Source: a virus (Duplodnaviria; Caudoviricetes). From it: 64,000 bases of DNA. Location of the stretch: the IMG/VR virus record IMGVR_UViG_3300049892_000014, positions 1 through 64,000 of that record; one strand, written 5' to 3'. This document shows positions 1,513-64,000 of this stretch, piece after piece. The notes below the pieces were generated by a model. That model did not search any database. It was not told the DNA's origin and saw only the letters and a list, made by a program, of their open reading frames with translations. The position numbers and the translations under genes were made by a program. Position 1 is the first letter of the stretch, and the number at the start of each line of letters is the position of its first letter.

Positions 1513-1521
1513 GGGATTTTA

Positions 1522-3526: not shown

Positions 3527-3551
3527 CATACTGGAATGAGTGTGGTATAAG
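3523..3551 (+). promoter_or_regulatory. Sigma70-type promoter TTGACA-N17-TATAAG with extended -10
   Basis: ttgaca 3523-3528, tg-g-tataag ending 3551, upstream of the glycosyltransferase. Confidence 0.75.
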
Positions 3552-3583
3552 GGTAGGATTATTAACTTTAACATTGGAGAGTT

Positions 3584-5244: not shown

Positions 5245-5287
5245 CGTTAAAGGGTATAATATAGGTATAACATAAGGAGAAAGTAAT

Positions 5288-5608
5288 ATGGCGTTTAAAG
5301 CGGCTACAGTATCAATCACGGTTTCCGGAATAGCAAAACCACTCAGCTCAACATCTATCAGAGTGAAACAATTATTTGTTCAGGCTATGCCATCTAATGC
5401 TGGCCCAGTTCTTCTTGGAGATAGTACTGTACTATACTCAGGAGTATCTGGTGGACATATCGTCTTAAGCGCTCCGGTATCTGGGGTTCCTGCTGAGCCG
5501 CTACACCTAGTGCCAGATGGAATAGGTCCGATATTAGATCTTAGTGCTGTGTATATCAATTCTGTTAGCGGGTTACCTGGAGTTAATATCTTTTACGAAG
5601 AGTTCTAA
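5288..5608 (+). CDS. Small beta-rich hypothetical (probable virion) protein
   Basis: AAGGAG SD; beta-strand pattern with QAxxxNxGxVxLG. Confidence 0.6.
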   Translation: MAFKAATVSITVSGIAKPLSSTSIRVKQLFVQAMPSNAGPVLLGDSTVLYSGVSGGHIVLSAPVSGVPAEPLHLVPDGIGPILDLSAVYINSVSGLPGVNIFYEEF

Positions 5609-5610
5609 TT

Positions 5611-6381
5611 ATGACTCAGCCGGAATATAAAGATATTCCTGATAATGACTGGACAAGTTTAAGATATTTTGTCAGGAGATCTAATGAAAGATTAGCATTA
5701 CTAGAGGGGTCGGCTGGCCCTAGTATGATACATGCTAATCTTGATATGGATTATAATAGAATACTCAATGGTCCATATAACCAAACCACGGCTGAATCAG
5801 ATGAATTTATTACTAGGCATTTTTTATATACGCCAGAAGCCAATACTCTGATTAATAAAGTTAAATCAGATGCAGAGGAGAACCTACAGGGATCATCCGC
5901 TGGATCTGGTATGCACAGTGTAACTAATATCCAAATCGTCGCTTCAGATGCGGTTGGTTTAGCAAACATTGGCGGGTATATGTATTACTGGAAAGTTCCA
6001 TTAGATGGGACTGTTTCTTTAATGTACCTACATTTTGACGTACATGCTAATATAGATAGCGCCATTCTAACCAGTACATATATGGATATTATATTACCAG
6101 ATAATCATATTATCTATTATCCGTATACCAATCCATACGTTCAACAGATGTCGTGTATTGCGTATCAAGAAGATGCTACATACCCATCGTACTGGGGCAT
6201 AGTAACCATGCAAAATGAAGTAGACTATCTTAGGATTGGCAGGATACAAACTTGGTTCGAGGGTAGCGTTCCGGCATATAATGCTCAAATGATATACCCA
6301 GTAGATTTTGAACCTAATTCTTTACCAGCACTCGCCAGGACGTTTAATCTATCTGGTCAATTAATTATTCCAGTTATATAG
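5611..6381 (+). CDS. Putative tail fibre/receptor-binding protein, paralog 1
   Basis: Conserved N-terminus shared with the next two genes; NLDMDYNRILNGP...DEFIT resembles a tail-fibre stalk motif. Confidence 0.55.
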   Translation: MTQPEYKDIPDNDWTSLRYFVRRSNERLALLEGSAGPSMIHANLDMDYNRILNGPYNQTTAESDEFITRHFLYTPEANTLINKVKSDAEENLQGSSAGSGMHSVTNIQIVASDAVGLANIGGYMYYWKVPLDGTVSLMYLHFDVHANIDSAILTSTYMDIILPDNHIIYYPYTNPYVQQMSCIAYQEDATYPSYWGIVTMQNEVDYLRIGRIQTWFEGSVPAYNAQMIYPVDFEPNSLPALARTFNLSGQLIIPVI

Positions 6382-6387
6382 GATAAT

Positions 6388-7218
6388 ATGCAAACTGAAT
6401 ATAACGACGTGCAAGATGGTAGCTGGGATAGTGTTAAATACGCTATACGTAGATTTAATGAAAGAATGTCTGCTCTAGAAGGACGCTCTGGTCAAATATC
6501 TAAATACAGCGATATCTACATGTCTGGCAATCAAATAATTCATGGTCCTATTAGGCAACTAAATGCTGAGCAGGACGAGTTTATCACTAAGGATTATCTT
6601 AAAACTACAGAAGCCAAAAGCGCATTTCAACCATTTAAAGAATACTCTCCGCAAACCGTAACCAGCGAGCAAATAAACTCCACGCCTAAAGGTCAATATG
6701 AGTGGCCCAGATATGATCCAGATCATTACTGGGAGCCAGCTTATCAGATTGAAATCATATCAGGAAACCCAGACCCAGACTATAGGGTTATTGATACTCA
6801 GTATCGTATCCCATATGTACTATACCCTATACCAGAGTTTGAGGTAACAAGGGTTGCGTTTCCCAGTAGGACATATAGCGAATTCTTCATGATGCATATT
6901 CCTATGTATACATTTTTTACTACCAATAATCAATTAGCCATCCCATATGCTTGGTGGGTATTACCAGAGGCATTAGTTTGTGTTTTACCTGGAGGTGGAA
7001 TAATACGGGCATTGGCAAATGTTAGGGGATACAAGCAGACTGGGCCTACTCCTACTTATCTATTTGCAGAACTGGGTGCTATGGAATTAGAAAATGAATC
7101 TGATAGAATTAAGATGTATCCAACCAGGTATGGAGTACCAGTAGACTTCCCTAGGCCATACTATAATGATATTAGCTGGAATCTATGGTTTCCTGTCGCA
7201 AGATATGTGGTGGGGTAA
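6388..7218 (+). CDS. Putative tail fibre/receptor-binding protein, paralog 2
   Basis: EYND...W...RRFNERMSALEG...GP...DEFITK N-terminal module; divergent C-terminus. Confidence 0.55.
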   Translation: MQTEYNDVQDGSWDSVKYAIRRFNERMSALEGRSGQISKYSDIYMSGNQIIHGPIRQLNAEQDEFITKDYLKTTEAKSAFQPFKEYSPQTVTSEQINSTPKGQYEWPRYDPDHYWEPAYQIEIISGNPDPDYRVIDTQYRIPYVLYPIPEFEVTRVAFPSRTYSEFFMMHIPMYTFFTTNNQLAIPYAWWVLPEALVCVLPGGGIIRALANVRGYKQTGPTPTYLFAELGAMELENESDRIKMYPTRYGVPVDFPRPYYNDISWNLWFPVARYVVG

Positions 7219-11085: not shown

Positions 11086-11481
11086 ATGGCTGGTGAATTA
11101 GGTAATTTTGCCGGAGGCTTTGCGGCTGCTAGAGATGCTAGGAAACAGCGTCAGTCGGCAGATGCGAATACTTCTATGTTGAAGAGTTTAATCTCGGGTA
11201 AGCCTGCAAGTGGCGGCGGCGCTACTCCAGAAGCAGCCACGCCAGTTATTACTGGAGGCGCTACTGGCACTGGAGCCACACCTGCTAAGCCTACATTCAC
11301 AGATAGACTTAAGAAGGGCTTAGCGAAGGCTGGTAAGAGTATTATGGGATTTGAAAAAGGAGGCCAGGTTACCAGAACTGGCGTGGCCCTAGTGCATAAG
11401 GGGGAGCATATTATTCCCGCTGGTCAGAGTGTTGAGCGTAAAGCTATCCGAAAGTCTACACGTAGATCCGGAAGACGGTAA
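11086..11481 (+). CDS. Putative internal virion protein
   Basis: N-terminal LGNFAGGFAAAR; C-terminal FEKGGQVTRTGVALVHKGEHIIP resembles motifs of tape-measure/ejection proteins. Confidence 0.5.
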   Translation: MAGELGNFAGGFAAARDARKQRQSADANTSMLKSLISGKPASGGGATPEAATPVITGGATGTGATPAKPTFTDRLKKGLAKAGKSIMGFEKGGQVTRTGVALVHKGEHIIPAGQSVERKAIRKSTRRSGRR

Positions 11482-32000: not shown

Positions 32001-34138
32001 TGGGGTTTAATGATATAGACCTAGACCTAAGTACTCTCCAGGGTAATATTATAGCAGTTGTTGGAGAGAACGGCGCTGGTAAGTCTACTCTATTGGAGTC
32101 TATGGGATATGCAGGATTATATAGAACCTTCCCGTCCAGGGAGCAGGGTATACATAAGTATGTTGGTGGTAGCGATGCGTACATAGAGAACGACTTTACG
32201 TGTGACGGTAAAGAATACCGCACGAAGATACTGATCAATCCAGCTGGTACTAGGGTTGAAGCGTATCTATTTGAAAATGGGGTGGCTATCAACGATGGCA
32301 AGACTAGCTCATTCGATAATGAGATAGTTAAAAGGTTCGGGAGTCCTGAGCTTATCCTTTCATCAGTATTCTCTGCACAGAACAACGTTGGTAGCTTCCT
32401 TGAGCTTCCAAGGCCCAAGAGGAAGGATCTCTTTATTTCCATGCTCAATCTTGGTATACTACAGGATGTGGCGAATTATTCGGCTAATATGGAAGCGCAG
32501 TTTGAAGCGCAAGAGAGAGATTTAGCAATCAAGATCCAAACACTCGCACCGGCTTGCTCTGTAATAATACCCGACAAGGAATCTCTATCCAAGAAACAGG
32601 AATCACTTGCCGCCTGTCTTTTGGATAGAGAGACAGAGCGTGATAGTCTGAAGGCTAAACTTGCAGAAGTGAATAATGTATTACTGGACCAGGTAAAGAA
32701 ACAGACTGTGGTTAACAAGCTCACTCTAGAGATAGACAGTCTTACCAGTAAGAGGGCGGCAATAAGAAGTAATCTAGATAAAGCTAGAAAAGAGCTGGAT
32801 AATAATATTGCCCCAACCGACGAAGAGGTTGCTAAACTTCAAGCTGAAGCCGATATGGTTGGTGTATACGAACAGAGAAAAGAGGATAAGGAGGCTGAAT
32901 TAGCTACAGCTGAACGAATTGTGGCGGAGAATAAATTAGCTATATCTAAGGCATCATCTGAGGAGAGTTCGATTAAGCAGAATATATCATTAAGACAGGA
33001 GATGTTATCTAAGTGCATAAAAGACTCGGAAAAGCTAAAGGAAGTACCATGCGGGGGAGAGGGAGAATTCTCTCTATGTCCATTAATAAAAAACTCAGTA
33101 GACAACAAAAACCTATTACCATCAATGGAGTCGCATCTAGTGGAATTGAGCCAGAGGCTGTTGGATGCACAAGTCTACACGAAGACACTGGCACCTGTTG
33201 ATAATTCGTCGTCGCATCTCAAATTAGATATATTAGATCTGAAGCAGAGAATAGAAGTTGCAAGAAAAGCTAGGATGGATATATCTATATATAAGTCCAA
33301 AAAGAATGACAGTACTATATTAAAACAAAGGATAGACGATCTATCTACTCAGCTATTAGAACTTATAGAAAACATACAAGGAAAAGAAGAGGAGCGTGAG
33401 GATCTTTTAAAGCAATTGAGTTGCGCTATGGATGAGGAGTATACAACACTTACTAAAAATGTAGTATCTATAGATAACGACATAGCTTACTATAAGTCGG
33501 CTCAACATCAGGTAATGATGGATCTTGGTAAAGTGGACGCTATTAAAAAGAACGTAGAATCCGCTCAGTCTGAAACCAGGAAAATTGAAAAAGAACTTGA
33601 GCATCTAAGGAAGGAGAAGGGTGAATGGAGTCATATATCCTATGCGTTCGGACCTAAAGCTATACAGGCTCTAGAAATTGACAGCGCCGGACCTTGGGTT
33701 AGTGATTTGGTCAATGATTTATTACGGTCATGCTTTGGTACTCGGTTTACTATCAACCTGATCACACAGGCAATGAAAGCTAATAAGAGTGGCATGAAGG
33801 ACTTCTTTGATATCGAAGTAATAGATGCAGAGAAGAGTAGGACTGGATTAATCAATGACCTAAGCGGCGGTGAGAAGGTGATCTGCTCAGAAGCGATCTC
33901 CCTTGCTATAGCGTTATACAACGGTAACGTGGGTGGGGTAAAATGGGACACTCTGTATCGTGACGAATGTAGCGGGGCGCTGTCGCCCAAAAATGCTTTG
34001 CTGTATATTAAGATGTTGCGTCGGGCGATTGAACTCGGCAAATTCAAACGATGTTTTTTCATTGCGCATCAACCTGAGTTGGTGGATGCCTCTGATAACC
34101 AGATTATCATTAAGAAGGGAAAGATAGAGCTTAAATAG
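31967..34138 (+). CDS. sbcC: SbcC/Rad50-like SMC ATPase
   Basis: Walker A GENGAGKST, Q-loop, coiled coil, LSGGE signature, Walker B DE, IAH. Confidence 0.92.
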   Translation: MYNKRIAIQGLMGFNDIDLDLSTLQGNIIAVVGENGAGKSTLLESMGYAGLYRTFPSREQGIHKYVGGSDAYIENDFTCDGKEYRTKILINPAGTRVEAYLFENGVAINDGKTSSFDNEIVKRFGSPELILSSVFSAQNNVGSFLELPRPKRKDLFISMLNLGILQDVANYSANMEAQFEAQERDLAIKIQTLAPACSVIIPDKESLSKKQESLAACLLDRETERDSLKAKLAEVNNVLLDQVKKQTVVNKLTLEIDSLTSKRAAIRSNLDKARKELDNNIAPTDEEVAKLQAEADMVGVYEQRKEDKEAELATAERIVAENKLAISKASSEESSIKQNISLRQEMLSKCIKDSEKLKEVPCGGEGEFSLCPLIKNSVDNKNLLPSMESHLVELSQRLLDAQVYTKTLAPVDNSSSHLKLDILDLKQRIEVARKARMDISIYKSKKNDSTILKQRIDDLSTQLLELIENIQGKEEEREDLLKQLSCAMDEEYTTLTKNVVSIDNDIAYYKSAQHQVMMDLGKVDAIKKNVESAQSETRKIEKELEHLRKEKGEWSHISYAFGPKAIQALEIDSAGPWVSDLVNDLLRSCFGTRFTINLITQAMKANKSGMKDFFDIEVIDAEKSRTGLINDLSGGEKVICSEAISLAIALYNGNVGGVKWDTLYRDECSGALSPKNALLYIKMLRRAIELGKFKRCFFIAHQPELVDASDNQIIIKKGKIELK

Positions 34139-45155: not shown

Positions 45156-45438
45156 AGTTCACCTCCATTCTTAACATTAGGCGTAATGCTTCCTTGTCAG
45201 CTTGACTAGATTGTATCCACCACCTACAGGCGTATGACGTGGCATCCATAGATGGGTAATCAGTTCCACATCTTATTCTTTGAACATTATACATGAAAAG
45301 ATTCATATCATCCATACCTTGTATACGAATAAGATATATTCTTTTTTCCTTGATACTTACTTTGTGATAGATGCGGATGCTCTGTAGCTTGTATACTCCG
45401 TCCATATTAATGTATTCCATGTTATATGTATACATCAC
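45118..45438 (-). CDS. Hypothetical protein (weak member of C-terminal-tag family)
   Basis: SSQADKEALRLMLRME near the C-terminus. Confidence 0.5.
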   Translation of the reverse strand: MMYTYNMEYINMDGVYKLQSIRIYHKVSIKEKRIYLIRIQGMDDMNLFMYNVQRIRCGTDYPSMDATSYACRWWIQSSQADKEALRLMLRMEVNYAKTYNDEGSPS

Positions 45439-47411
45439 AACTCCTTAAATGACGAGATAGCTTCTTCTGGAAGTTGCTTCTTATATTTCAGAACAATCTT
45501 CCTTCCTAAAGCAGCGGCCTTTGGAGTAAGCCTGCCCTGTTGGGCTAAGTTTACACCTAACCTGGTATCGAATTTATTAAACCCTATACCGTCCACAGCT
45601 CTAGCTCCATCACAAAGGCCAGCTATCATCTTTAATGCTAGGTGAATATCATCTATCTGCCTAGAGGTTAGCTTTTGAGAATCAAGGGTTAATTGATCTG
45701 GAGAGACTGATTCCGTAGCAACTGGCTCGGCGTAGTTTGCGCTTAATTCCTCTAACTTTAACGCCTGTCCTACGGCCAATCCCTTATCCAATGCCTTATC
45801 GGCTACGTTCTGCTTTGTCACTGTACGTTTTGCCATCATAGAGTCTATGCTACCCTCTAATACATAATGCTGACACAGAACGCTAGACAACTGGCCGTAT
45901 CTGTGTAGTCTATCTTCGCATTGAGTGATCCATGCCGGAACCCAATCTTCTTCAGCGAAGACTGCATGACTACAAACTAGCTGAAGCTTATTTAATCCTA
46001 TACCAGCGGCTTTAATAGATCCAAGAAAAACACGACAGTTTGGATCTTCTACAAACTTCACCACCGCATCATTCTTCTCGTCTACATCTTGCTCTCCCGT
46101 TAGCCTAACGCACATACCAGGAAACTGTTCATAGAGTCCGTTAATCATATCGTGGTGGTGAGCGAAGACTACTATCTTTTTATCTGTCCCCTCAAGCATC
46201 TCACGGAGATGATTGGCTAAGATTGGGAGTTTAAGAATAGCGGTATCATGCCTAACCTTTGCCATTTCCTTAAATGCAATAGCCTGTGAATCTTTAAGCC
46301 TGCTAATAGCATTATGATAATCCTGCTGATTATCGGAAAGCTTAGCTAGTTCAGCCGCCGCTCTTAATTGACTAATATTCTCCATGCAGTTTTCATAGAA
46401 CTGTCTCTCTTTTAAGATACCTGCTAGAGTTTCGTCTTGAGCGGGGATCTCAATAACCTGTCTTATCTTAGGTGGTAGATCTGTTAAAACCTCAGCTTTT
46501 GTTCTCCTAATCATCACAGTAGATCGAAGTTTCTGCTGTAGTTCTTTAAGATTACTATGACCGGTAAAATCCCAGCCAAACCTACCCTTCTTGCCAGCGG
46601 CATATCTTAAGCCAAACTTAAAGAAGTTATCGTAATTAGCAGGATCTAACCAATTTAAGATAGGAAACAATTCTATAGTTCTGTTAAGAATCGGAGTACC
46701 AGTGAGAGCTATCATACGATCAGCCCTTAGTGGATCTAAGATCCAAACATTCCTAGCCTTCTTACCTACTACCTGGGTAGTTCTCTGCGCTTTAGGATTT
46801 TTACAGAAATGACTTTCATCTACGATAACTAGATCCCAATGCCTTTTGCGTACATCTGTAGCAAACTTTTTAAGTATGTCATAGTTGATGATGACAATGT
46901 CATCAGCCGGAAAGCTCTTAGCGCCAATTCCTACGGATAGTTTTCTGGTTAGCCAGTCGTTTAATTCATTTCTCCAGTTAATCTTAAGAGAGTTTGGGCA
47001 TATGATAAGAACTGATTTAATCTCAGGACAGTAGTTAATCACACCAATAGTCTGAGGAGTCTTACCTAATCCCATATCATCGGCTAATAAAGCATGTTTG
47101 TGCTTTAATAGAAAATCTATACCAGCCAACTGAAATGGCCTAAACTCTTTGCCTTCTGGAGTGGGTACGGATATATTACATCCCCTAGACTTACTAGCCT
47201 CTATTGTGGTATCGTATTGCGTAGACAATGCCTCCAACTCAGCCCTGCAACTACTATCAGCATATCCATATAACTTAGCGGCAATGTGTACGTCCTTGGT
47301 ATACCAATGCCTCTTAAGTACATCCCACTTAAATCCAGCCTTCTTAGGCAGATCTTTTTCCTCATATCTAGTGAGAGCTACAAAGGCATCGCCTTCTTTT
47401 TGTAACAGCAT
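45435..47411 (-). CDS. SNF2-family (SMARCAL1/HARP-like) helicase
   Basis: ADDMGLGKT, DESH, LTGTP, RRTK..VL.DLPPK, QCEDRLHR.GQ. Confidence 0.92.
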   Translation of the reverse strand: MLLQKEGDAFVALTRYEEKDLPKKAGFKWDVLKRHWYTKDVHIAAKLYGYADSSCRAELEALSTQYDTTIEASKSRGCNISVPTPEGKEFRPFQLAGIDFLLKHKHALLADDMGLGKTPQTIGVINYCPEIKSVLIICPNSLKINWRNELNDWLTRKLSVGIGAKSFPADDIVIINYDILKKFATDVRKRHWDLVIVDESHFCKNPKAQRTTQVVGKKARNVWILDPLRADRMIALTGTPILNRTIELFPILNWLDPANYDNFFKFGLRYAAGKKGRFGWDFTGHSNLKELQQKLRSTVMIRRTKAEVLTDLPPKIRQVIEIPAQDETLAGILKERQFYENCMENISQLRAAAELAKLSDNQQDYHNAISRLKDSQAIAFKEMAKVRHDTAILKLPILANHLREMLEGTDKKIVVFAHHHDMINGLYEQFPGMCVRLTGEQDVDEKNDAVVKFVEDPNCRVFLGSIKAAGIGLNKLQLVCSHAVFAEEDWVPAWITQCEDRLHRYGQLSSVLCQHYVLEGSIDSMMAKRTVTKQNVADKALDKGLAVGQALKLEELSANYAEPVATESVSPDQLTLDSQKLTSRQIDDIHLALKMIAGLCDGARAVDGIGFNKFDTRLGVNLAQQGRLTPKAAALGRKIVLKYKKQLPEEAISSFKEL

Positions 47412-50464: not shown

Positions 50465-50602
50465 ATTGCTCGCATAGCCAATGTCGGGATTTAAACCCGA
50501 TCCCTTGACCTACACCACATAGCAGGAGTCAAACCGTCTTAGGGTAGAGCTATGTTTCGGATGCTATCACGGCTAGCACGGCGCATTGGCTATGCGAACA
50601 AT
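50465..50602 (-). ncRNA. tRNA-like structured non-coding RNA
   Basis: 19-bp terminal inverted repeat, T-arm-like TCGGG-TTTAAAT-CCCGA stacked on a GCCAATG/CATTGGC stem, internal hairpins, own promoter. Confidence 0.6.
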
Positions 50603-50628
50603 ATAACCTATTGTTCACAGATTGTCAA
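50600..50628 (-). promoter_or_regulatory. Sigma70-type promoter TTGACA-N17-TATATT overlapped by palindrome GAACAATA-N5-TATTGTTC
   Basis: -35 at 50628-50623, -10 at 50605-50600. Confidence 0.75.
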
Positions 50629-51906: not shown

Positions 51907-52162
51907 TACCAGATCCCCTTCCCTCTATAACTTCTGTTAGATAGAATAACTCCCATTCTTCTTTAGTGAATTTCATCAGTCTTTCAGCAAACTTAGTCTC
52001 GCCTTCTGACTTTGTATAATGTCTATACGTAGACCCAGAAATAGACCTACCTATTGGTACTTGTACGTTTATCCAAGCTGAACTAGCATCTCTATATAGG
52101 TCAATGGTATCTAGTTCATTCTGCCTATATCTGAAGATAAGTCTAGTGTGATTTGTTTCCAT
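51896..52162 (-). CDS. Hypothetical protein, C-terminal-tag family
   Basis: Ends FTKEEWELFYLTEVIEG. Confidence 0.65.
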   Translation of the reverse strand: METNHTRLIFRYRQNELDTIDLYRDASSAWINVQVPIGRSISGSTYRHYTKSEGETKFAERLMKFTKEEWELFYLTEVIEGRGSGNGS

Positions 52163-54693: not shown

Positions 54694-54706
54694 ATATACC
54701 TCCAAT

Positions 54707-54772
54707 TAGTATTCAATTCCAGGCTCACCCTGAGCCAAGACTGAGCTAAGGGTGAGCCAAGATTCAATACTA
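54707..54772 (-). promoter_or_regulatory. Conserved RNA stem, copy 1
   Basis: UAGUAUUGAA-UC-UU-GGCUCACCCU...AGGGUGAGCC-U-GGA-AUUGAAUACUA. Confidence 0.75.
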
Positions 54773-55864
54773 CCAGAGTCCAGCTTGCGTCAATACATCC
54801 TTAAACCGCATAGCTTCTGGCGGCGGGAGCGATGTAGACTTAGGCCGATTCTTAACAAGCAATCTAGCACAAGAAGCCGCTATGTCTGCCACGTTCAATT
54901 CGGCAGCTTTAGCCAACACTCTCCAACCATTCAGCCATCGCTCATTGGTGTTGTTACTGATAACGACAGCTGTTACTGAGGTCAGTAAGGCGTAAGCCCT
55001 ATCTCCACGTTTAGGAAGAACAAGCTTTTCGGGATGAGCCAATACAACTTCAGGATCAGGCAACTCATCACCCTCTTGAAACTTCTTAAACTCTAGAGCT
55101 GGGCCGTCCCCAACACATCCAGCTATAAGTTCAAAGACTACATCGTCAGAGTCTTTGAAACCAAACGCTCTAGCAGCAGCCAATAGCCTTGCAGCCATAT
55201 CCCATGTTCTATTACTTGGCCACGCTTTACCACGACTATCCTCATCCTTAGGAATAGCATTACGCAGATTAGGACGAGTGCGAACAAATGAAACTATCGC
55301 AGTTCGAGCTAATTGGATATTAGCAGGTTTATCCCAATCTTTAGGAAGTTCCTGCTTTTTAGACTGCGGCCATCCAGAGATCATACCCTCAGACCATGAA
55401 TCCAGAGTATCCGCAAAATCAAAGTGAACAAACCTATTAGCCAACGGAGGAGATAGCTCCCATCCATTAGCCGCTTGCTCAGGTGGATTAGCAGCAGCTA
55501 CGATAGTGACATGCTTAGGTAGCTGAAGATCACCAACAGCCTTATCTAAAACCACTCTAAGCAATGCACTCTGTACAGCCGGTGGAGCCGTAGAGATTTC
55601 ATCTAAGAATAAGACTCCAGGAATATCGGTATTCAATCGGTGCGCCCAAGACGGCGGAGCATAATGTACAACTCCATCCGCACCCTGAATAGGTAGGCCG
55701 CTAAAGTCCGAAGGTTCACGGATAGCGGCAATAACTACCTCACAGTTCCAATCCATACTCTTTGCTACGTCAACAAACCAAGAAGACTTACCAACTCCAG
55801 GAGGGCCAGTTAGTAGCACTGGAACGCCCGCCAACATTGCAATAGTCATAGCTTTACCACTCAT
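54770..55864 (-). CDS. MoxR-family AAA+ ATPase
   Basis: GPPGVGKS, REPSDFSGLP, LFLDEISTAPPAVQSALL, AAANPP, PLANRF. Confidence 0.92.
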   Translation of the reverse strand: MSGKAMTIAMLAGVPVLLTGPPGVGKSSWFVDVAKSMDWNCEVVIAAIREPSDFSGLPIQGADGVVHYAPPSWAHRLNTDIPGVLFLDEISTAPPAVQSALLRVVLDKAVGDLQLPKHVTIVAAANPPEQAANGWELSPPLANRFVHFDFADTLDSWSEGMISGWPQSKKQELPKDWDKPANIQLARTAIVSFVRTRPNLRNAIPKDEDSRGKAWPSNRTWDMAARLLAAARAFGFKDSDDVVFELIAGCVGDGPALEFKKFQEGDELPDPEVVLAHPEKLVLPKRGDRAYALLTSVTAVVISNNTNERWLNGWRVLAKAAELNVADIAASCARLLVKNRPKSTSLPPPEAMRFKDVLTQAGLW

Positions 55865-55880
55865 ATGTTTTCTCCTTAAG

Positions 55881-56141
55881 TTATTGTTTTTTCTTCGGGT
55901 TGCAAATAGGACAATCATCTTCCTGGTCTGAGATCCGATCAGGAACTAATGGCCATTGATTTAACTCGCTGACCTGGTTTAAGTCTCCAGTCCATTTTGA
56001 TGATGTGCTATGGATAGTTACAGATGGTATCTTATACTGCTCTACCATAGACTTCACATCATTAAGTTTATGGATATGACGGCTAATAATCTGTCCGTCT
56101 GGCAGTGTGAAATCAACTTCAAAACCTTTCGTCTTACTCAT
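55881..56141 (-). CDS. Hypothetical protein
   Basis: ORF with C-terminal CPIC. Confidence 0.55.
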   Translation of the reverse strand: MSKTKGFEVDFTLPDGQIISRHIHKLNDVKSMVEQYKIPSVTIHSTSSKWTGDLNQVSELNQWPLVPDRISDQEDDCPICNPKKKQ

Positions 56142-56144
56142 CGT

Positions 56145-57107
56145 TTACTCCTTTGGATATTTATTGATATAATCATAAGAATAATTGACTATATCATGTA
56201 TTGATACTGCATAGATAGCTTTTTCTGCTAACGCTACCCGTTCTTGAAGCTCTGCCACATAAGCGTCTACATGTGAACTATTCTCATGCTTACTGGTAAC
56301 TGCCGCTATTTTTGTAGACAAAACTATCTCTCGTAAAGTATTCAGATTACCACCAGCGGCTAGCCAATCAGAGAAGTCTCCCTTTTCTGGAAGGCCTGGC
56401 AATTCTACTACCTTAACTAAATTAGCTAATGCAGCAATGCCATAGAGAATAGTTTTAGCATGTTGTTGTCCAGCCTGGTCATTATCAGGAATAATTACAA
56501 CATTCTTTCCCTTAAACCATTGATTGTAATCTTCCTTCCAACTATTAGCTCCCATCGGATTAGTAGTAGCCGGTAGTCCTAACTTCCACATAGCATCAGC
56601 ATCCTTCTCGCCTTCAACTATGTAGACTACTGGCCTATCTATCCATTCATTGATACGATATGGATATAGTTTAATATCTCCAATCCCAGGTTGCCAATCA
56701 GGATTATGCTCCCAGTCTGCAATGTTTCGATACAAAGCGTAAGACTTCTTATTGTTATCGTCAATAAACTTCTTGACCAATAAGAATGGATTACCCTTCG
56801 GATCTCTATAGACGTGAGAATTAACAAAGTTTCCCTTTGTCCTAGCTCTTTCTTCCATAAGCCCCCTTTCTACAAGCCAAGTAATCACATCACTTACCTT
56901 GTTTTTATTACTGATAAAGAAAGCAAAGTCCCAAGCTCCTCCATGCTTACCGCAAGGCCCACACATCCACACATTCTTATCGGGATGTATGGTTAAGCTG
57001 CCATGTAGATCGTCATGATTGGGACAATGAAAAATAATCTGCTGTCCAACCTTTCGGTCAAACTGCAATCCAACAGTCTTAGCAATGGCTGAACAAGTGA
57101 TATTCAT
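56145..57107 (-). CDS. DNA primase (CHC2 zinc finger + TOPRIM)
   Basis: CPNHDD..SL...CGPC; IVEGEKDA; IPDNDQAG; KGDFSDW. Confidence 0.9.
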   Translation of the reverse strand: MNITCSAIAKTVGLQFDRKVGQQIIFHCPNHDDLHGSLTIHPDKNVWMCGPCGKHGGAWDFAFFISNKNKVSDVITWLVERGLMEERARTKGNFVNSHVYRDPKGNPFLLVKKFIDDNNKKSYALYRNIADWEHNPDWQPGIGDIKLYPYRINEWIDRPVVYIVEGEKDADAMWKLGLPATTNPMGANSWKEDYNQWFKGKNVVIIPDNDQAGQQHAKTILYGIAALANLVKVVELPGLPEKGDFSDWLAAGGNLNTLREIVLSTKIAAVTSKHENSSHVDAYVAELQERVALAEKAIYAVSIHDIVNYSYDYINKYPKE

Positions 57108-57584
57108 GATAGCCTATCCATTAAATATTCTAGGTTCATTTGTTTGTATACAATTCTTTTAATTGTATTTGGAGCTAGTTTATACATGATGCCTAGGGTT
57201 TCCAAGACTTCATTCTCTATATATTGCACATTCTTGCCGTCACAGTCATGCCTCCAATGCGGGCAATCTCTCCAAGATGCTAAGATATTTCTATCTCTAT
57301 TCATTATGGCTATTTTTCTATCTAATCTTTTCATGTTTATCACCTATTAAATCTGATAATTTAATCAAGATGGATAAATCATTTAACTCGTAAATAGATT
57401 TTGCTATTGCAAGCAAATACTCTTTATCGCAATTCAAGCAACAATCGTAACCTAAGTTAATGGTAACGCTATCCGGCCCATGCTTTTCACAATGCGGATA
57501 ATTATAACCTCTTTCAGAAATATTGATAGGCGCACCAGTCATCGCCACACCCCTATTCCTACTATAAGTTATCGTAGCTCTCAT
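57104..57584 (-). CDS. Two small hypothetical genes (57104-57343, 57318-57584)
   Basis: Coupled ORFs. Confidence 0.55.
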
Positions 57585-57595
57585 ACATCCTCCTA

Positions 57596-57643
57596 TAGTA
57601 AACATTCCCAGGCTATACAGAGTATAGCCAAGGATAAAAACTA
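57596..57643 (-). promoter_or_regulatory. Conserved RNA stem, copy 2
   Basis: AUCC-UU-GGCUAUAC-UCU-GUAUAGCC-U-GGGAAU. Confidence 0.8.
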
Positions 57644-58651
57644 AGTAGTGATGATATGTTTTGGATTGTTTTTAGTTACTTCCAATAAAACATCCAAAGC
57701 GGAAGCTTTTACATCATTGCCAGTTCCGAAGATAGCCGACTCCGCCCTAAGCATGTCCTCGGTTAGATTCTTTCTTTTAGCTGTACTACGAACACTCTTT
57801 TCATGGTCTACATAAGCATTAATAGCTCCAAGCAGAGAATAGGCAGAACCCTTAACTTCTGGCACTACGTTGTATTGATTATTGTCAAACAGCTCAATAA
57901 TCCGAAGCATGACATTATCACGCCTTGTACTCTGATCTCCAGGAAATACCTGATCCAAGGCTTCTGCCATACTCTCCTTAGTCATATCACGTTCCGCTAA
58001 GATATTCAACTTCGCTTGAATATCCTGAGAACTTAATACAACTTGATCCATAAGACTCTTAGCAGCCGCTAACTTACGCTCTGCATTAGTCGTATGTTTA
58101 ATCCTTAAAACTTCTCCATTACCATATCGCAATGCAGTCTGTAGAGAAGTTCCACGCTTCACATTGATATGTGTAAGCCTAGCTGTAGTAGCCATAGATC
58201 CATCATGGCTAGAAGCAAATAGGATATGGGCTTTATTCAAATCGTCAGTCCCATTGATAAAGAAGTCACAAGCAGGACAACGTACTAATACCCAAAAGAC
58301 ATTGCCATCTCCCAAAGCTCCAGCGGACTCATAATGAGATCCTCCCGCTTCTCCTATGAGAGTATCGACAAAGTTAAAGGCGTATTCAAACTGTAATGGA
58401 CGATATACGCTGCCAACTGTAGCAAAGAATCTATCGTTATCATCTCTGAATATACCAAAAGCGTTAATCTTTTCACCCGAACCATTCGGATGAACTAACT
58501 GACGCTTAGAGACTGTGAAAGTTAAATGAGCTAGTTGCCTAGCTTGTTCCCAGGTTACTGGCTTATCTGATACTTGAGACAAACCATCGGCCTGGCCTAC
58601 TACAAACGACATATACTCGTTGCTGAGTACATCAAAGGCCATGCTTTTCAT
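57641..58651 (-). CDS. DUF932 (TIGR03299-like) phage/plasmid protein
   Basis: VG..Y.PLQ...AF, ESAGALGDG, SHDGS, IKHT motifs. Confidence 0.85.
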   Translation of the reverse strand: MKSMAFDVLSNEYMSFVVGQADGLSQVSDKPVTWEQARQLAHLTFTVSKRQLVHPNGSGEKINAFGIFRDDNDRFFATVGSVYRPLQFEYAFNFVDTLIGEAGGSHYESAGALGDGNVFWVLVRCPACDFFINGTDDLNKAHILFASSHDGSMATTARLTHINVKRGTSLQTALRYGNGEVLRIKHTTNAERKLAAAKSLMDQVVLSSQDIQAKLNILAERDMTKESMAEALDQVFPGDQSTRRDNVMLRIIELFDNNQYNVVPEVKGSAYSLLGAINAYVDHEKSVRSTAKRKNLTEDMLRAESAIFGTGNDVKASALDVLLEVTKNNPKHIITT

Positions 58652-58965
58652 AAATCCTCCCCATGAAATGCGGCATCAGCTATCGCTTCTACTTCTTCAT
58701 CACTAGCGTAGCCAATGAGAGCTTTATTGATAGGAAAGCCATCATCATCAAAAGCTTTAATAGCTTCCATATCAGTATCTTCGCCATCGTGATCTTTGAG
58801 ACATTCACGTTTATAAGACTCTGTTTCTTCTCTTAGCTGGATCAAAGTCTCATCAATCATGTTTGCCAATATATCCCTGCCTTCCGAAGATGACAAGTCA
58901 ATCTTGTCTATCTCTTCACAGACAGTCCAAGCGGCACCATCATTGTCTTCGATGACTAATATCAT
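58648..58965 (-). CDS. Highly acidic hypothetical protein
   Basis: About 30% Asp/Glu. Confidence 0.65.
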   Translation of the reverse strand: MILVIEDNDGAAWTVCEEIDKIDLSSSEGRDILANMIDETLIQLREETESYKRECLKDHDGEDTDMEAIKAFDDDGFPINKALIGYASDEEVEAIADAAFHGEDL

Positions 58966-58977
58966 ATTCCTCCTTGG

Positions 58978-60079
58978 TTAGTTATTGTAATACTCACTTT
59001 CATACCTATCCATGTACTGCATATTCCCAGGATCTTCAATAATCAATGCTAACCTTGCGCATCCAAGAGAATCTTTCGGTACACTTGTTGGAGTTGAATC
59101 GAAGTCTAGTCCAAAATGCTCAGAAAATCTTCGAGACTCAGCCATCTTAGTTTCGGCAGCATTTAATTTCCATCGCTTAGACCAATTCTCTCTAGCACGA
59201 ACAACTTTAAGTGCTAGAATATCTATATCATCCCTATAATCTTTTAATATAGACTGTAGATGATGATGATATGGCTTCCTATACTTAGATAAGTGAACAC
59301 GAAATACTTTGTATCCACTCAGTAATTCCATATGATCATCAGACCATATGTTATGGTTTCTGATGGCATGAAACGCAGCATAGCTATGCTGTCTAGTAGT
59401 TTGAGACTTACTATCAATACAGTTTAGAAAGACACACTCATCCTTCCCCTCCATTCTAACGAAAGATGCGACAGGATAATGCGCACCAAAACTATAAAGG
59501 GTATCATTTCTATAATATAGTGAGTAATCTGTATTTCTAGCATGGTCTTGCTCTTTTTCAGCCCACAACTCTGCAACTCTACGATTGTTATATACTATCT
59601 TTGGTCGTTTCTTTTTCAGAGTAATAGAAATTTCCATTAGTCTAGCTCCTTAAGAGTCCATAGTATATCACTATCAACCCTACGCAGTCCAATCCAATAG
59701 CCATGCTTCTCATAAGTTACCTTGCGCTCCCAACCAATCTTGGGCAGAACAGGAATATGATAGCCATTAGGATCAGACTGCTGACATAAGATTTTAGCTT
59801 CACTCTCAGTAATATAATACAATCCATTACTGAGAAGTCTTTTTTCTAAATCAAGCTTCATAGCCACTCCTGCATAGGCTTGCAATTCTCTAGCTTCTTA
59901 ACAATTGAAGCCTCATGAGTGTGGCCATCCTGGGTTAGTATTTCAGATATAGTAGGTGATTTCATATCGCAAATTTGCCTAACTATATCCAACATTGTAC
60001 GATAGTGTGCATTGATCTCATTGAGACCTGAGACTTCTCCACACAACGGACAATAATCATCTTGCCACGACATATACAT
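58978..60079 (-). CDS. Three hypothetical early genes (58978-59637, 59637-59885, 59858-60079)
   Basis: Coupled ORFs; 58978-59637 carries a weak C-terminal-tag match VPKDSLGCARLALIIE. Confidence 0.6.
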
Positions 60080-60087
60080 ACTCCTTT

Positions 60088-60217
60088 CACTAATAAATCA
60101 ACCCCAGTCTACGCAGGTCGCTTAAGCTAGAATCTTTCCAGAATGATAGGCAGACACTCAGCCTATCAAACTCGTCCTAGCCCTCTCTACACGTAGACAA
60201 GAGCAAAGCTATTAGCG
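60088..60217 (-). ncRNA. Conserved RNA stem, copy 3 (covariant GUCU/AGAC), enclosing a rod-like structured insert
   Basis: Nested helices CGCUAAUA/UAUUAGUG, GUCUACGU/GCGUAGAC, GCUAGGA/UUCUAGC, UGAUAGGC/GCCUAUCA. Confidence 0.7.
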
Positions 60218-60220
60218 GGA

Positions 60221-60358
60221 TTATTCAGTTGCATACACTAACTGTATGCCACTAACTAAGCACACTATGGATAGCCAAGCTTTAGGGCCAAGAGTATGAG
60301 CTAAGAGACCATACCCTATAGCTATTAAAATATATCCAGCAAATCTTATAGACTTCAT
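60221..60358 (-). CDS. 45-aa membrane peptide (not in ORF track)
   Basis: MKSIRFAGYILIAIGYGLLAHTLGPKAWLSIVCLVSGIQLVYATE; AAGGAGG SD. Confidence 0.6.
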   Translation of the reverse strand: MKSIRFAGYILIAIGYGLLAHTLGPKAWLSIVCLVSGIQLVYATE

Positions 60359-60371
60359 GGAAGCCTCCTTT

Positions 60372-60983
60372 CTAAAACTCAAACTTATCTTTCCCACCTA
60401 TAACATTCATCATCTTATCCATTTCAAAGCGATACATTTCTTCGTCTGATAATCCATAATTGATAGACCATTTAGTAGCTTCGTTGAGATCTGAGACAGT
60501 TTTGAATAAAGTCTCTAGCTCTTGATAAGTCCAATGTTTCCAATATGACGTAGTAGGCTTATCATCTGAAAATAATTTATTAAACCTATCTCTAATTGAC
60601 GCCTGGTATTTTATGGATAGTAACTCCTTATAACAATTCACATCTAAGGCAGCTATACTACCATAATAATTTACCTGAGATATATTATATTTATTACTCA
60701 ACAGTATGCGATAGATGCTGTCAACTCTATTCATAAGGCAATGGCCATCCCGATAAATTCCTAAATCTTTTCCCTTAACCATATAGCCATCATGGTCAAA
60801 CATTACAACTAAATTAGCCGGTCTATCCATATAAGCCATAACAACATTTCCCATAAACAAGAAATCCCGTATAATTGTGACTTCCCGTTTACCTTTGTAC
60901 TTAAAAGATGCGTATTTCTGTCCACGCATCCAGGCCATGGTTACTCCTGCAATATCTGAATAAATAGCTTTTTGCTTAGGCAT
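60372..60983 (-). CDS. Hypothetical protein, C-terminal-tag family
   Basis: Ends LSDEEMYRFEMDKMMNVIGG. Confidence 0.65.
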   Translation of the reverse strand: MPKQKAIYSDIAGVTMAWMRGQKYASFKYKGKREVTIIRDFLFMGNVVMAYMDRPANLVVMFDHDGYMVKGKDLGIYRDGHCLMNRVDSIYRILLSNKYNISQVNYYGSIAALDVNCYKELLSIKYQASIRDRFNKLFSDDKPTTSYWKHWTYQELETLFKTVSDLNEATKWSINYGLSDEEMYRFEMDKMMNVIGGKDKFEF

Positions 60984-60997
60984 CCTATCTCCTTTCT

Positions 60998-61066
60998 CAA
61001 ATACACATTCCCAGGCTTAACAAGCGTCGTTCCAATTACACCAGTTAAGCCAAGGATACATATTCG
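60998..61066 (-). promoter_or_regulatory. Conserved RNA stem, copy 4
   Basis: CGAAUAUGUAUCC-UU-GGCUUAAC...GUUAAGCC-U-GGGAAUGUGUAUUUG. Confidence 0.8.
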
Positions 61067-61129
61067 ATATCCTATTTAGATGTGGAGCCTATCCCTAAAC
61101 AGCACATAATAGATAGACTTGTGGCTTTT

Positions 61130-61306
61130 CTACATATGGGTATCCTCCTTTCTTTTTATAGGAGAAACATAAGTCTTACCATTTCGTAGTTTACACATAC
61201 CCAAAGCTTGATGGCATAGCCTACTATAGTGGCAGCACCAGTTTTTCTTTAGCAAACCCTTATTCCACAAAGATTGACAGTCTCTACATCGCTTTGGGCA
61301 TTTCAT
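61130..61306 (-). CDS. 58-aa Cys-rich protein (not in ORF track)
   Basis: MKCPKRCRDC...WCCHYSRLC...MC; ATGA overlap with the NADAR gene. Confidence 0.55.
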   Translation of the reverse strand: MKCPKRCRDCQSLWNKGLLKKNWCCHYSRLCHQALGMCKLRNGKTYVSPIKRKEDTHM

Positions 61307-61761
61307 TTGTACTCCTGTGTAATCTCATCTCTATGCTCCATAAGCAGGATTCCTAGCATATTCTGCCCAGTATGCCCACAGTCTGGGCAATGACATATAC
61401 CCCAGAAGGTCTCATGGATGTAGTTACCATACTGTAGATCAACTGGATAAGTTTCCTTGAGCATATATTTTAATAACTTATCCAAGAATTTAACCCTTAT
61501 AAGCGTTCTCATGATCTCTAGTTTATATGTTGACCAATCAGGCCTCATATTGGACAGTATGCCAGCTCTGATAGCGTATGTGGGATACTTTTGCTTTCTT
61601 ATATACTCACGATACTGCCTACCTTCTTCGGTTTCGCTAGACATCTTAGAAGCCTGATAAGCATGTTCCACAGTTTTGTAATAGACTCCATCAAACAATA
61701 TAGGCTTACCTATATAATTATTTGAGAGAAAGCTATTACCTTGTTTGAAGAATCTTATCAT
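61303..61761 (-). CDS. NADAR (YbiA-like) family protein
   Basis: FLSN, TVEHAYQASK, RPDW, KF, FWG, GQNMLGILLME.R. Confidence 0.9.
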   Translation of the reverse strand: MIRFFKQGNSFLSNNYIGKPILFDGVYYKTVEHAYQASKMSSETEEGRQYREYIRKQKYPTYAIRAGILSNMRPDWSTYKLEIMRTLIRVKFLDKLLKYMLKETYPVDLQYGNYIHETFWGICHCPDCGHTGQNMLGILLMEHRDEITQEYK

Positions 61762-61776
61762 TTTGTCTCCTAACTC

Positions 61777-61977
61777 CTACAAATAAAAAACCCGATCACC
61801 CTTAACATAGGCTGTTCGGTTATATTTCCAATGTCTATTAGACTCAGTCCATCCAGAATTAACTAGCCCATTCTTTACTCTAATCCATATTCTCCTACAC
61901 TCCTCAATCGGAGCATAGTAAGGATAATACACATGAGCAAAGACTACTCTTTGTTTCTTATTCTTCTTCTTTTTCAT
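61777..61977 (-). CDS. Basic hypothetical protein
   Basis: GGAGG SD directly after stem copy 5. Confidence 0.55.
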   Translation of the reverse strand: MKKKKNKKQRVVFAHVYYPYYAPIEECRRIWIRVKNGLVNSGWTESNRHWKYNRTAYVKGDRVFYL

Positions 61978-61988
61978 AGTCTATCCTC

Positions 61989-62039
61989 CATAAAACAATC
62001 CCAGGCTTAATCCGAAGATTAAGCCAAGGTTATTCTATG
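61989..62039 (-). promoter_or_regulatory. Conserved RNA stem, copy 5, capped by a C(UUCG)G tetraloop
   Basis: CAUAGAAUAACC-UU-GGCUUAAUC-UUCG-GAUUAAGCC-U-GGGAUUGUUUUAUG. Confidence 0.85.
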
Positions 62040-62161
62040 AGTCTTTACTGAACATTCTTGACTGTATCTTATATCTAGCAGTCCTATCCTGTCTAAATCC
62101 AGGATTAAGACTTCCACAGTTTGCCCTACGAGTCATCTTAGGATTAGACTGATGGATTAGC

Positions 62162-63106
62162 CTAGTCTTCTTGTTGACCTCTGACTTCCACAGTTGAGCT
62201 AGACTCATTGATACTCCTGCTAGATTTTATAGTTAGAATCATCAGCACAGCTCCTAATAGATAAGCTATTGCCTTATCATATTGGGTAGAGTGCAGTAGA
62301 GAATCCATACCAATAAAGGTACAGTAGATACCTAATATGCTCACAACGATTAGACATACAAGATTAAACAAATGCCATAGCAATGACAACATATAGTCTG
62401 CCCTCCATAAGCAGGATTAAATACAACCTCCACAACATCCCTGTCTAACTTCGGCATTAACTACATCTATTGCCTCAGCCTTTGCTTCTTCTGGAAAGCC
62501 TTCAGGCCATTCACTAATAAGCCATGGGCCATATTCTACATTCTCTTCCCATTCCTTGGTAAACCATACGCTTCCACCCGAAGACATACAGTATTGTGGA
62601 AACGTAAACTCTTGGCCATCTACCTTGAGAACCAGAATACCAGAGCATAGATTGGGATACTGACCGCTATAAGACACAAACTCAACAGTCATAACTCCTC
62701 CTTAGAGATAGTTAAGTCTAGCCTGGTGCATAACACCATGCCATTTATGAACAGGGACACAACTTGTAATCTTATCCACTATTGCATCAAGACGCTTAGT
62801 CCATAGCCTTCGATCCGCATAAGACAATGGAATGTAATAATCTGCCCCTATAGGCATACAATGATGAGCGTCTATAGGTGACAGATAAAAAGCTACATTA
62901 CGCCAAACATAATAGATAGAGGCATCTCGAAAGTCATATTCTCTATACTGTCCGTAATGCGTATCATCTGCTGGCTTAATGATCGAAGATATTGGAGGCT
63001 TACTAGCCCTAAGAACGCCACCAGAGTTAAGGATAGCTCTTGCTATACCTAACTCATGTTCATCAAACTGTTTTTCATCAAGTTCAATTTTAGGCATATC
63101 ATACAT
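62162..63106 (-). CDS. Three hypothetical early genes (62162-62392 membrane; 62417-62692 ending GCCGGCI; 62702-63106)
   Basis: SD-led ORFs. Confidence 0.6.
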
Positions 63107-63123
63107 AGTGTTTCTCCTTGGTT

Positions 63124-63266
63124 AATAAATCAATCTCAGGCTCAATCTAACTGTTCTAGTCTTACCATTATCGCTATTGCGGCATCTGTACAGCTATTCC
63201 ATTCGGTTGCCTACAGTTTTGCCAGACCATACTATCGCATAGTATTGAGCCAGAAACAAAGCTATC
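63124..63266 (-). ncRNA. Conserved RNA stem, copy 6 (variant), enclosing ~100-nt structured insert
   Basis: AUAGCUUUGUUUC-U-GGCUCAAU...AUUGAGCC-U-GAGAUUGAUUUAUU; flanks nearly match copy 3. Confidence 0.65.
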
Positions 63267-63871
63267 CCTCTGAGTTTAATACTTCGGGTTCACTCACTTC
63301 AAAATCTACAGTCTTAACTGGAGACGTATAGATTGTTTCACTACCAAAAGGCTTAAATATCATCTTAAAGCCTATGGTAATGTATTCACAAGCTGTGAAC
63401 ACGGGACAAAACTCAGGGTGTCCCTGGATATATAGACGATTGCTTACTTCCTCAATCGTATACAGTGTGTTAATGGTTTGTACCTTAATCTTCATCGCAT
63501 TACTTATCCTTTCCTACTGTGGTAGCCAAATCAAAGCCGCCATAGTATCCATTGTGCTTGTTGTGGGTTTGACAGACTATTACTCCATTATCTGTGTAGA
63601 TACGGAGAAACATAATCTCATGACGATCATCTTCATAATCATCTGGGACATCGTTGACAGACTCAGTCTTAATACTGACAAGCTTAGCATTGTCATAAGA
63701 CGAAAGATCATCATCGCAAGTCATATATCTATGCTCACAACAAGACTGTCCTCCATCCCATATGCTCAGGTTAGTCTTGTCTGTGAAATGCAGGATAAGA
63801 GTATCATTCTCCATCTCTACAGACGCAATAGTCTTACCAAAGCAATCTTTTGCATCCTGATCCAAGTACAT
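63262..63871 (-). CDS. Two hypothetical early genes (63262-63495, 63500-63871)
   Basis: Second has the QSCCE...HNGYYGG pattern recalled from phage proteins; AGGAGG SD. Confidence 0.6.
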
Positions 63872-63883
63872 ATCTTCCTCCTA

Positions 63884-63936
63884 TATAAACCATTCCCAGG
63901 CTTGTCCACGTGTAGACAAGCCAAGGATAATCTATA
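63884..63936 (-). promoter_or_regulatory. Conserved RNA stem, copy 7
   Basis: UAUAGAUUAUCC-UU-GGCUUGUC...GACAAGCC-U-GGGAAUGGUUUAUA. Confidence 0.85.
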
Positions 63937-64000
63937 AGCAGGACTATTCTTGATAATCATCCAGAGGATACTGCATAGCATACTCTATGCAATCCTTCGA

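Follow-up and report, generated by a model that had tools for sequence, protein, structure and literature searches.

In phage T7, early transcripts carry ribonuclease III (RNase III) sites between their cistrons, R0.3, R0.5, R1, R1.1 and R1.3, whose names and positions we take to be those of Dunn and Studier (1983); the sites are unannotated in the RefSeq record. An idealised RNase III substrate is 22 base pairs (bp) long, and loops, bulges or mismatches at the target lead to single-strand cuts, which leave stabilising 3' hairpins (PMC3867540). The early mRNA of Bacillus phage SP82 has repeated sites for Bs-RNase III (Panganiban and Whiteley 1983, Cell 33:907, as cited in PMC4838370). In Cluster K mycobacteriophages, the ESAS repeats are 17-bp imperfect inverted repeats with a variable spacer, located directly upstream of starts; they are confined to the half of the genome that does not encode structural proteins, almost all of them point the same way, and they are kept across related phages before unrelated genes (PMC3203893).

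Here we describe a family of RNA hairpins in the early region of an uncultured virus (Duplodnaviria; Caudoviricetes), IMG/VR record IMGVR_UViG_3300049892_000014. The record is linear, 104,912 bp long and 82% complete; its bases 1-64000 were the stretch analysed and are called the window. An earlier note on this DNA had reported seven copies of an RNA stem directly upstream of early-gene ribosome-binding sites. With a probability of roughly one half, these elements would be intercistronic processing and stabilising hairpins of a leftward early polycistronic mRNA, that is, cut-and-cap signals for host RNase III that would also free a masked Shine-Dalgarno (SD) sequence.

The hairpin and its copies

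The leftward genes span from about 66 kb to 42 kb, and the hairpin array is at the start of this arm. The pattern CTTGGCT-N(4-34)-AGCCTGG has five exact matches in the window, all on the minus strand, at 54719-54761, 57608-57632, 61011-61054, 62001-62028 and 63896-63925. The chance expectation from shuffled sequences was 0.03 matches, and none of 100 shuffles reached five. Together with two variants that fold likewise, these are the seven sites of the earlier note, all of which are real. A sixth exact copy of the core is at genome 64366-64395, just past the end of the window, and a third variant with the same kind of helix (e64784) is at genome 64770-64859, which gives nine copies in total. 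Between genome 54.4 and 64.9 kb, every gap of more than 50 nucleotides (nt) carries a copy (9/9), and the remaining genes there overlap or abut.

Along the minus strand from 5' to 3', the common form of the hairpin begins with a lower stem of 11 bp, in which the sequence is free and G·U pairs are abundant. The CCU of the 5' core pairs with GGG (C-G, C-G and U·G), and above these pairs a U is opposite a U in a 1x1 U•U mismatch. The GGCU box above the mismatch pairs with AGCC and leads into an upper stem of at least 8 bp, which is closed by any loop (UCU, UUCG, GAAA or large inserts; 3 to about 100 nt). On the 3' side an A is bulged immediately after GGG, three pairs below the U•U mismatch. In type A copies, the mismatch and the bulged A are 11-14 bp above the base of the helix. 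The main helix measured 18-47 bp, with a median of 23, in 23 copies. The "U-rich internal loop" of the earlier note is accordingly redrawn here as the U·G pair, the 1x1 mismatch and the bulged A below them.

The shortest copy, e57608 (57594..57646, minus strand like all the following), is located between the DUF932 gene and an open reading frame (ORF) of 88 amino acids (AUG 57584). It has an 8-bp upper stem and a UCU loop, the DUF932 stop codon is inside its 5' arm, and its score with the covariance model described below, model R1, was 58.4 bits. The copy e54719 (54705..54775) is between the gene of the MoxR-type ATPase, whose stop codon is inside the 5' arm, and a 98-amino-acid ORF (AUG 54693). 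Its core reads UCUU-GGCU...AGCC-U-GGA, and a partial repeat is nested in its apex. This copy was absent from the seed of the model, yet it was found with 47.5 bits (E-value 8e-9); it folds with 27 bp at -35.8 kcal/mol. In e61011 (60997..61068; 58.4 bits), before a 203-amino-acid ORF (AUG 60983), all 23 of the modelled pairs form, five of them G·U, and the fold has -27.1 kcal/mol as against -14.6 kcal/mol for the antisense strand. The corresponding values for e62001 (61987..62042; 60.2 bits), before a 66-amino-acid ORF (AUG 61977), are -26.8 and -15.5 kcal/mol. This copy has the stop codon of a 57-amino-acid ORF inside its 5' arm and the c(UUCG)g tetraloop that the earlier note had described. 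The best match to model R1 (67.4 bits) is e63896 (63882..63939), which has the apex GUCUACACGUGGAC and precedes the DUF7448 gene (AUG 63871). Its paralogue e64366 shows a compensatory change from U-A to A-U in the upper stem.

The two remaining window copies belong to a variant type B. The first, e60104 (60088..60215), precedes a 73-amino-acid ORF (AUG 60079) and has the core CUCU-U-GUCUACG...CGUAGAC-U-GGGG with an apical domain of roughly 75 nt. It folds at -48.5 kcal/mol in RNAfold (z-score -5.0 against shuffles), and its antisense at -26.7 kcal/mol. Its type B base, AAUAGCUUUG.../...UUGAUUUAUUAG, is common to e60104, e63133, e64784 and two copies in related phages (L121:6445 and L157:164), and the three variants of this genome share a second base sequence, AAUAGCUUUG.../...UUGAUUUAUUA, below apical inserts of 55-105 nt. 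The other, e63133 (63120..63268), precedes a 134-amino-acid ORF (AUG 63106); its core is GUUUC-U-GGCUCAAU...AUUGAGCC-U-GAGAU, with a branched insert of roughly 100 nt. In the RNAfold structure the stem closes all 149 nt at -41.7 kcal/mol (z-score -2.6). Of the seven copies in the window this one is the weakest; in the 3' arm and around the SD its sequence is almost the same as that of e64784.

Conservation and covariation in related phages

Relatives were located through the DUF932 neighbour in a large protein database, at 57-82% protein identity. Six related metagenomic phages were obtained: L121-L124 (one phage), L125, L126, L156, L157 and L158. Megablast and single-protein scans for relatives recovered none. 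Model R1 was built from 11 compact copies and has 58 positions and 23 pairs. In the 105-kb genome it gave seven matches, including two copies outside the seed, on the minus strand only and between 54.7 and 64.9 kb; there was no match elsewhere in the genome. Twelve clear copies were found in the relatives (three in L121, four in L125, three in L126 and one each in L156 and L158), and the sixth relative, L157, gave two weak matches. Scans of metagenomes with a DUF932 profile, and of viral and other genomes with an ATPase profile, led only to distant phages (at most 42% identity) without the element, which served as negative controls. Model R1 found no match in 191 kb of unrelated DUF932-bearing phage contigs, nor in a further 55 kb that included the T7 early region, about 250 kb of unrelated phage DNA overall. 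A search of IMG/VR for the exact core pattern gave 113 single matches, about the chance number by a rough estimate, and these were rejected as relatives: the 60 most stably folding of them mostly formed no proper hairpin, and none had the flanking signature.

The seed was aligned with MAFFT, blind to structure. A larger alignment of 17 distinct copies, from four phages whose DUF932 proteins are 57-81% identical, was fitted to model R1, which favours the structure somewhat. In the seed, 91.7% of the cells were paired, compared with 32-45% in controls in which the partner was slid by 1-3 columns, and 15 of the 23 pairs had changed on both sides. The 17-copy alignment gave 92.0%, compared with 31-49% in the slid-partner controls, and 17 of 23 pairs. 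None of 500 shuffles reached the values of either alignment. The GGCU/AGCC box covaries too, appearing as AGCU/AGCU, GGAU/AUCC, GGCU/AGUC, GACU/AGUC and AAUU/AAUU. The covariation of the stems proposed in the earlier note, for which it had named a covariance model across relatives as the check, is therefore confirmed. While both stems turn over completely, CCUU and UGGGA are fixed in 16 of the 17 aligned copies. In the orthologous copies that follow DUF932 in L121, L125, L126, L156 and L158, the upper stems are entirely different from that of e57608. The core of the hairpin is under sequence selection across the related phages.

The modelled pairs of the 17 copies comprise 293 Watson-Crick pairs, 64 G·U pairs and one A·C pair. 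A site in duplex DNA or a hairpin of the other strand would give equal numbers of G·U and A·C, and neither explains a ratio of 64:1. Selection has therefore acted on the fold of an RNA, or at any rate of one strand, in the mRNA orientation. In most copies the sense fold is 8-19 kcal/mol more stable than the antisense fold. The view of the earlier note that the element works as RNA, and on this strand, the minus (mRNA) one, is supported.

Position relative to the translation signals

The SD follows the 3' arm directly, abutting the helix or lying partly inside it. The distance from the end of the element to the AUG is 8-18 nt in this genome, 8-13 nt in the seven window copies and 4-17 nt in eleven copies from four relatives for which a start could be assigned. 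The right arms thus end at or just before the SD, as reported. Of the seven window copies, four have the upstream stop codon inside the 5' arm, and two more have it no more than 8 nt from the arm.

In about half of the copies the helix extends further down, where a UCCU or CUC that resembles an anti-SD is paired with the SD. The probability of the SD being unpaired was 0.19 (e54719), 0.22 (e63896), 0.32, 0.43 (e62001, in which part of GGAGG is paired) and 0.48 in five of the nine copies, and 0.56-0.86 in the rest. In seven of eleven relative copies analysed it was 0.08-0.44. The claim that the element "activates" the downstream genes finds some structural support in about half of the copies, where the SD is paired into the foot of the helix and would be released by cleavage or by a ribosome arriving from upstream, but not in the rest, in which the SD is free.

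A motif scan gave TCCTGCTTAT at 63934..63943 (minus strand), where it comprises the anti-SD-like UCCU and the start of the 5' arm of e63896. It lengthens the e63896 helix downward onto the SD, so that CCU pairs with the AGG of the SD in the minimum free energy fold. A variant of the motif precedes e60104 (60211-60220), and an equivalent layout is seen at L126:456 and L121:8516. The sequence TCCTGCTWAT was considered as a phage promoter and set aside, since it is better read as an anti-SD together with an extension of the 5' arm; its recurrence is explained by the downward extension of the helix and the pairing of the anti-SD with the SD. It should be mentioned that this explanation covers the copies attached to hairpins and not the stand-alone ones. 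The latter are at window 61340-61349 and 62407-62416 (minus strand) and at genome 64441, 64989, 65476 and 65890; the one at 62407 is directly before GGAGGG and an AUG, and two are in the ORF-poor region upstream of the array.

Comparison with known systems

Five early gaps of T7 were folded for comparison, and the likeness to T7 RNase III sites suggested in the earlier note was found in both geometry and placement. Both kinds of element are located between cistrons of an early operon, and both are two-tier hairpins whose conserved core is at an internal defect of the helix, whose apical loop varies and whose lower stem covaries. In both, some 25-35 nt separate the 3' side from the AUG that follows, and the stop codon of the preceding gene is in or beside the 5' arm. 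However, the defect here consists of a 1x1 U•U mismatch and a bulged A, whereas that of T7 is a larger asymmetric loop, and the lower stem has 11 bp plus 3 bp here as compared with 5-8 bp in T7. Furthermore, the base of the helix here reaches the SD in half of the copies, and cleavage here is predicted. Model R1 finds no match in T7 400-7000 and the cores differ; the hairpin is therefore an analogue of the T7 sites and not a homologue.

The SP82 sites are similar in that sequence-similar hairpins are repeated in an early transcript and are cut by a "narrow-specificity" host RNase III, according to the published description as given in PMC4838370. A host enzyme of this kind would fit the conserved core seen here. 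The ESAS repeats, whose function is not known (PMC3203893), resemble the present elements as inverted repeats adjacent to starts, in one orientation and conserved across relatives. They differ in that they were described as DNA repeats without a test of covariation or strand, and the arms here are longer and have a fixed defect. The Cluster K SAS 13-mer GGGATAGGAGCCC, located 3-8 nt before start codons, is absent: eight matches with up to three mismatches were found as against 12.7 expected. One of them (60979-60991, three mismatches) spans the start codon that follows e61011, immediately 3' of this copy, and none is inside an element. T4-type phages reportedly have promoter-early stem-loop (PeSL) cassettes, said to have been described by Arbiol et al. 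in 2010, in which the PeSL includes an early promoter. They resemble the present array in that a stem-loop recurs where small early gene cassettes meet, and in that these cassettes vary from one related phage to another; in contrast to PeSL, no promoter was seen at the elements here.

Proposed function of the hairpins

The match with the layout of the T7 early sites is the ground for an RNase III-type reading. RNase III requires roughly two turns of helix. Here an irregular RNA duplex of about this length spans the region from the upstream stop codon to the SD of the next gene, and a defect near its middle might restrict cutting to one strand. The helix is present in sense-strand RNA between cistrons of a predicted polycistronic early transcript. 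Host RNase III would bind this helix, and the defect would cause it to nick one strand near the core. The upstream message would then be left with a 3' hairpin cap, and the downstream message would obtain a short 5' leader with a free SD, the SD-masking 5' arm being removed in about half of the copies. We infer the enzyme, the cut and its consequences from the fold, the strand, the covariation, the selection on the core, the position and the T7-like layout.

RNase III generally needs little sequence. Several observations weigh against processing by this enzyme. The near-invariant CCUU...UGGGA core exceeds what RNase III needs and could mark another factor. The core is not absolute and loosens in more distant phages: the diverged orthologue in L157 has no U•U mismatch, though it keeps a 23-bp helix, and L158 has a C in place of the bulged A. 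In addition, the SD is free in four copies of this genome, so that "activation" is not general. No gene for RNase III or for a double-stranded RNA-binding domain (dsRBD) was detectable in the phage genome. To our knowledge all hosts have RNase III, and the lack of a detectable phage gene is neutral for this reading for that reason.

The sharpness of the core raises the question of whether it (C-G, C-G, U·G, U•U and the bulged A) serves as an operator. A dedicated RNA-binding protein or endonuclease with sequence specificity, encoded by phage or host, would recognise it and control the nine early cistron starts together, by repression, activation or cutting, and the long helix would only present the site. 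We consider this unlikely. It would account for the invariance of CCUU and UGGGA in 16 of 17 copies despite complete turnover of the stems and for the fixed distance from the site to the start codon, and the early region offers at least 20 small ORFs without a Pfam family. However, a simple operator needs neither the approximately 11 bp below the core nor the 8 bp or more above it, and covariation keeps both in every copy; type B copies and L157 alter or lose parts of the core yet retain the long helix. No RNase III, dsRBD, other RNA-binding domain or nuclease domain was detected in the genome or, with Pfam, in 20 further small early proteins, which does not bear out the phage-encoded binder suggested in the earlier note. 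In a related and equally tentative proposal, the core might be the address label of an unrecognised RNA-binding protein or endoribonuclease, possibly a small early protein, that switches the nine starts by opening or cutting SD-masking helices. If this were true, the hairpins would form a phage-wide post-transcriptional regulon, analogous to T4 RegA/RegB, on a structured operator. It seems doubtful, too, that the hairpin is purely cis-acting, neither cut nor bound by a factor, and serves translational coupling and insulation. The SD would then be masked or framed until a ribosome ending at the upstream stop codon melts the lower stem, and the helix would block exonucleases like bacterial REP hairpins. 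The stop codons in or close to the 5' arm agree with this, as do the partly paired SD in about half of the copies and the pairing of the TCCTGCTWAT anti-SD-like extension with the SD. On the other hand, an invariant core amid free covariation elsewhere is left unexplained, the stop codon at e61011 is 64 nt from the helix and its SD is free (unpaired with a probability of 0.85), and the SD of e60104 is likewise free (0.86). For coupling, a short stem that covers the SD would be enough; it does not call for a 23-bp helix with a defect at a fixed place.

A role at the level of DNA, as a promoter (host or N4-type hairpin), a terminator, or a recombination or mobility site such as a PeSL- or REP-like cassette border, is highly improbable. 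The gene content of the relatives diverges exactly at the borders of the elements, and several copies have a 14-bp palindrome, GTCTACNNGTAGAC, at their tip that is also found elsewhere in the genome; both would suit such a role. It fails, however, to explain the 64:1 ratio of G·U to A·C, for duplex DNA and template strand alike, and all copies are in one orientation. Sigma-70-like promoters (-35 and -10 hexamers with 16-18 nt spacing) were not found at the elements and were not enriched, with 45 found and 41.1 expected. An intrinsic terminator was rejected, since no U-tract follows the stems and no terminator-like site is present at any element; the 3' arms read, for example, GUAACAACUAUA. Two textbook terminators 1-2 kb upstream, in the same direction of transcription, carry 8-9 T. 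The N4-type hairpin promoter of the virion RNA polymerase has a short stem of 5-7 bp and a 3-nt loop on the template strand, and goes with a giant polymerase gene. It was rejected on the basis of the stems of 18-47 bp, the loops of 3 to about 100 nt and the selection of the fold on the sense strand. A 2535-amino-acid protein of this phage matches only a PHROG family of unknown function. No gene for a T7-type RNA polymerase or a sigma factor was detected in the genome, the search with PF00940 being unvalidated (the control genomes, bacteria without this family, gave no match). With Rfam 15, a tRNA was the only match in the window at the gathering threshold, and the elements gave no match at E-values up to 5; there was also no match in the relatives (E up to 0.1), and no ribozyme in the equivalent gaps.

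Genome context and additional motifs

The genome has a G+C content of 42%. Megablast gave no DNA match to deposited phages, and the best protein match has about 30% identity. Rightward genes are at 0.3-36.6 kb and again from 67 kb on. Many small ORFs, at least 20 of them in the early region without a Pfam family, come first in the leftward arm and are followed by a NADAR protein, the DUF932 protein, a DnaG-type primase, the MoxR-type AAA ATPase and a DUF2201 VWA-peptidase. The term "host-takeover mRNA" used in the earlier note is accordingly too narrow, as the punctuated stretch also contains the primase, the MoxR-type ATPase and the DUF932 protein.

The gene of an SNF2-type helicase is at window 45435-47411 in this phage, about 10 kb away, as compared with L121:11207-13180 and L125:10860-12308, where it is located 3' of DUF932 and the hairpin, directly in L121 and after three small ORFs in L125. 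Such differences in early genes at the hairpin borders are as expected if the repeats mark cassette junctions. In L158 (274-1323), the product of the DUF932 orthologue in the database (Logan contig) fits only with TAG read as Q, and the call continues for 11 codons past the stop codon into the hairpin. This is probably an artefact of gene calling rather than recoding.

The stretch of about 2 kb upstream of the first hairpin (genome 64,900-66,900; L120:1100-3100) has hardly any ORFs. Two canonical intrinsic terminators are found in it, along with unusual repeats, both direct and inverted (ctagcctagtctagcctagtc; gggtagggtagg...cctacccctaccc). In this stretch Rfam gave no credible match at E-values up to 1, the single one being a microRNA at chance level (E 0.25). 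A 129-amino-acid early protein (genome 63944-64333, minus strand; its 3' end is in the window at 63944-64000) has a weak match to the ribosomal L7/L12 C-terminal domain, under the curated cut-off (E 5e-4; 20.7 versus 25.9 bits). The sole near-consensus sigma-70 promoter (TTGACA-17-TATATT) in the scanned 50-64 kb is at window 50600-50628 (minus strand), downstream of the hairpin array.

The near-palindrome GTCTAC-NN-GTAGAC (14 bp) has 17 strand-wise matches in the genome, in both arms, as compared with 1.4 expected; about 13 of these are the 14-bp form when one mismatch is allowed in the second half. The 14-bp palindrome is at window 11454-11467, 33173-33186, 52021-52034, 60185-60198 and 63904-63917, and beyond the window at genome 64374, 65285, 67288, 78432, 90422 and 103548. 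Several copies are just upstream of an SD, and it also forms the hairpin apex here and in L121, L126 and L156. The palindrome could be a DNA operator or a favoured stem of RNA.

Significance of the hairpin family

The sequence family of the hairpin is new: it has no Rfam match and was found only in a small clade. The kind of element, a T7-style intercistronic hairpin, is already known, and the finding alone reveals no new mechanism. Model R1 provides a compact model for the annotation of such sites. The sharply conserved core is a precise target for mutagenesis, by which one may learn what, beyond the length of the helix, directs RNase III or another factor. The partial masking of the SD, together with the stop codon in the 5' arm, allows a direct test of how processing, translation of the upstream gene and initiation at the downstream one are linked. 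If the reading as RNase III signals holds, the array would be a clean, covariation-backed case in an uncultured phage clade without a cultured close relative, and would suggest that punctuating early messages with long hairpins, as in T7, is a general strategy of phages.

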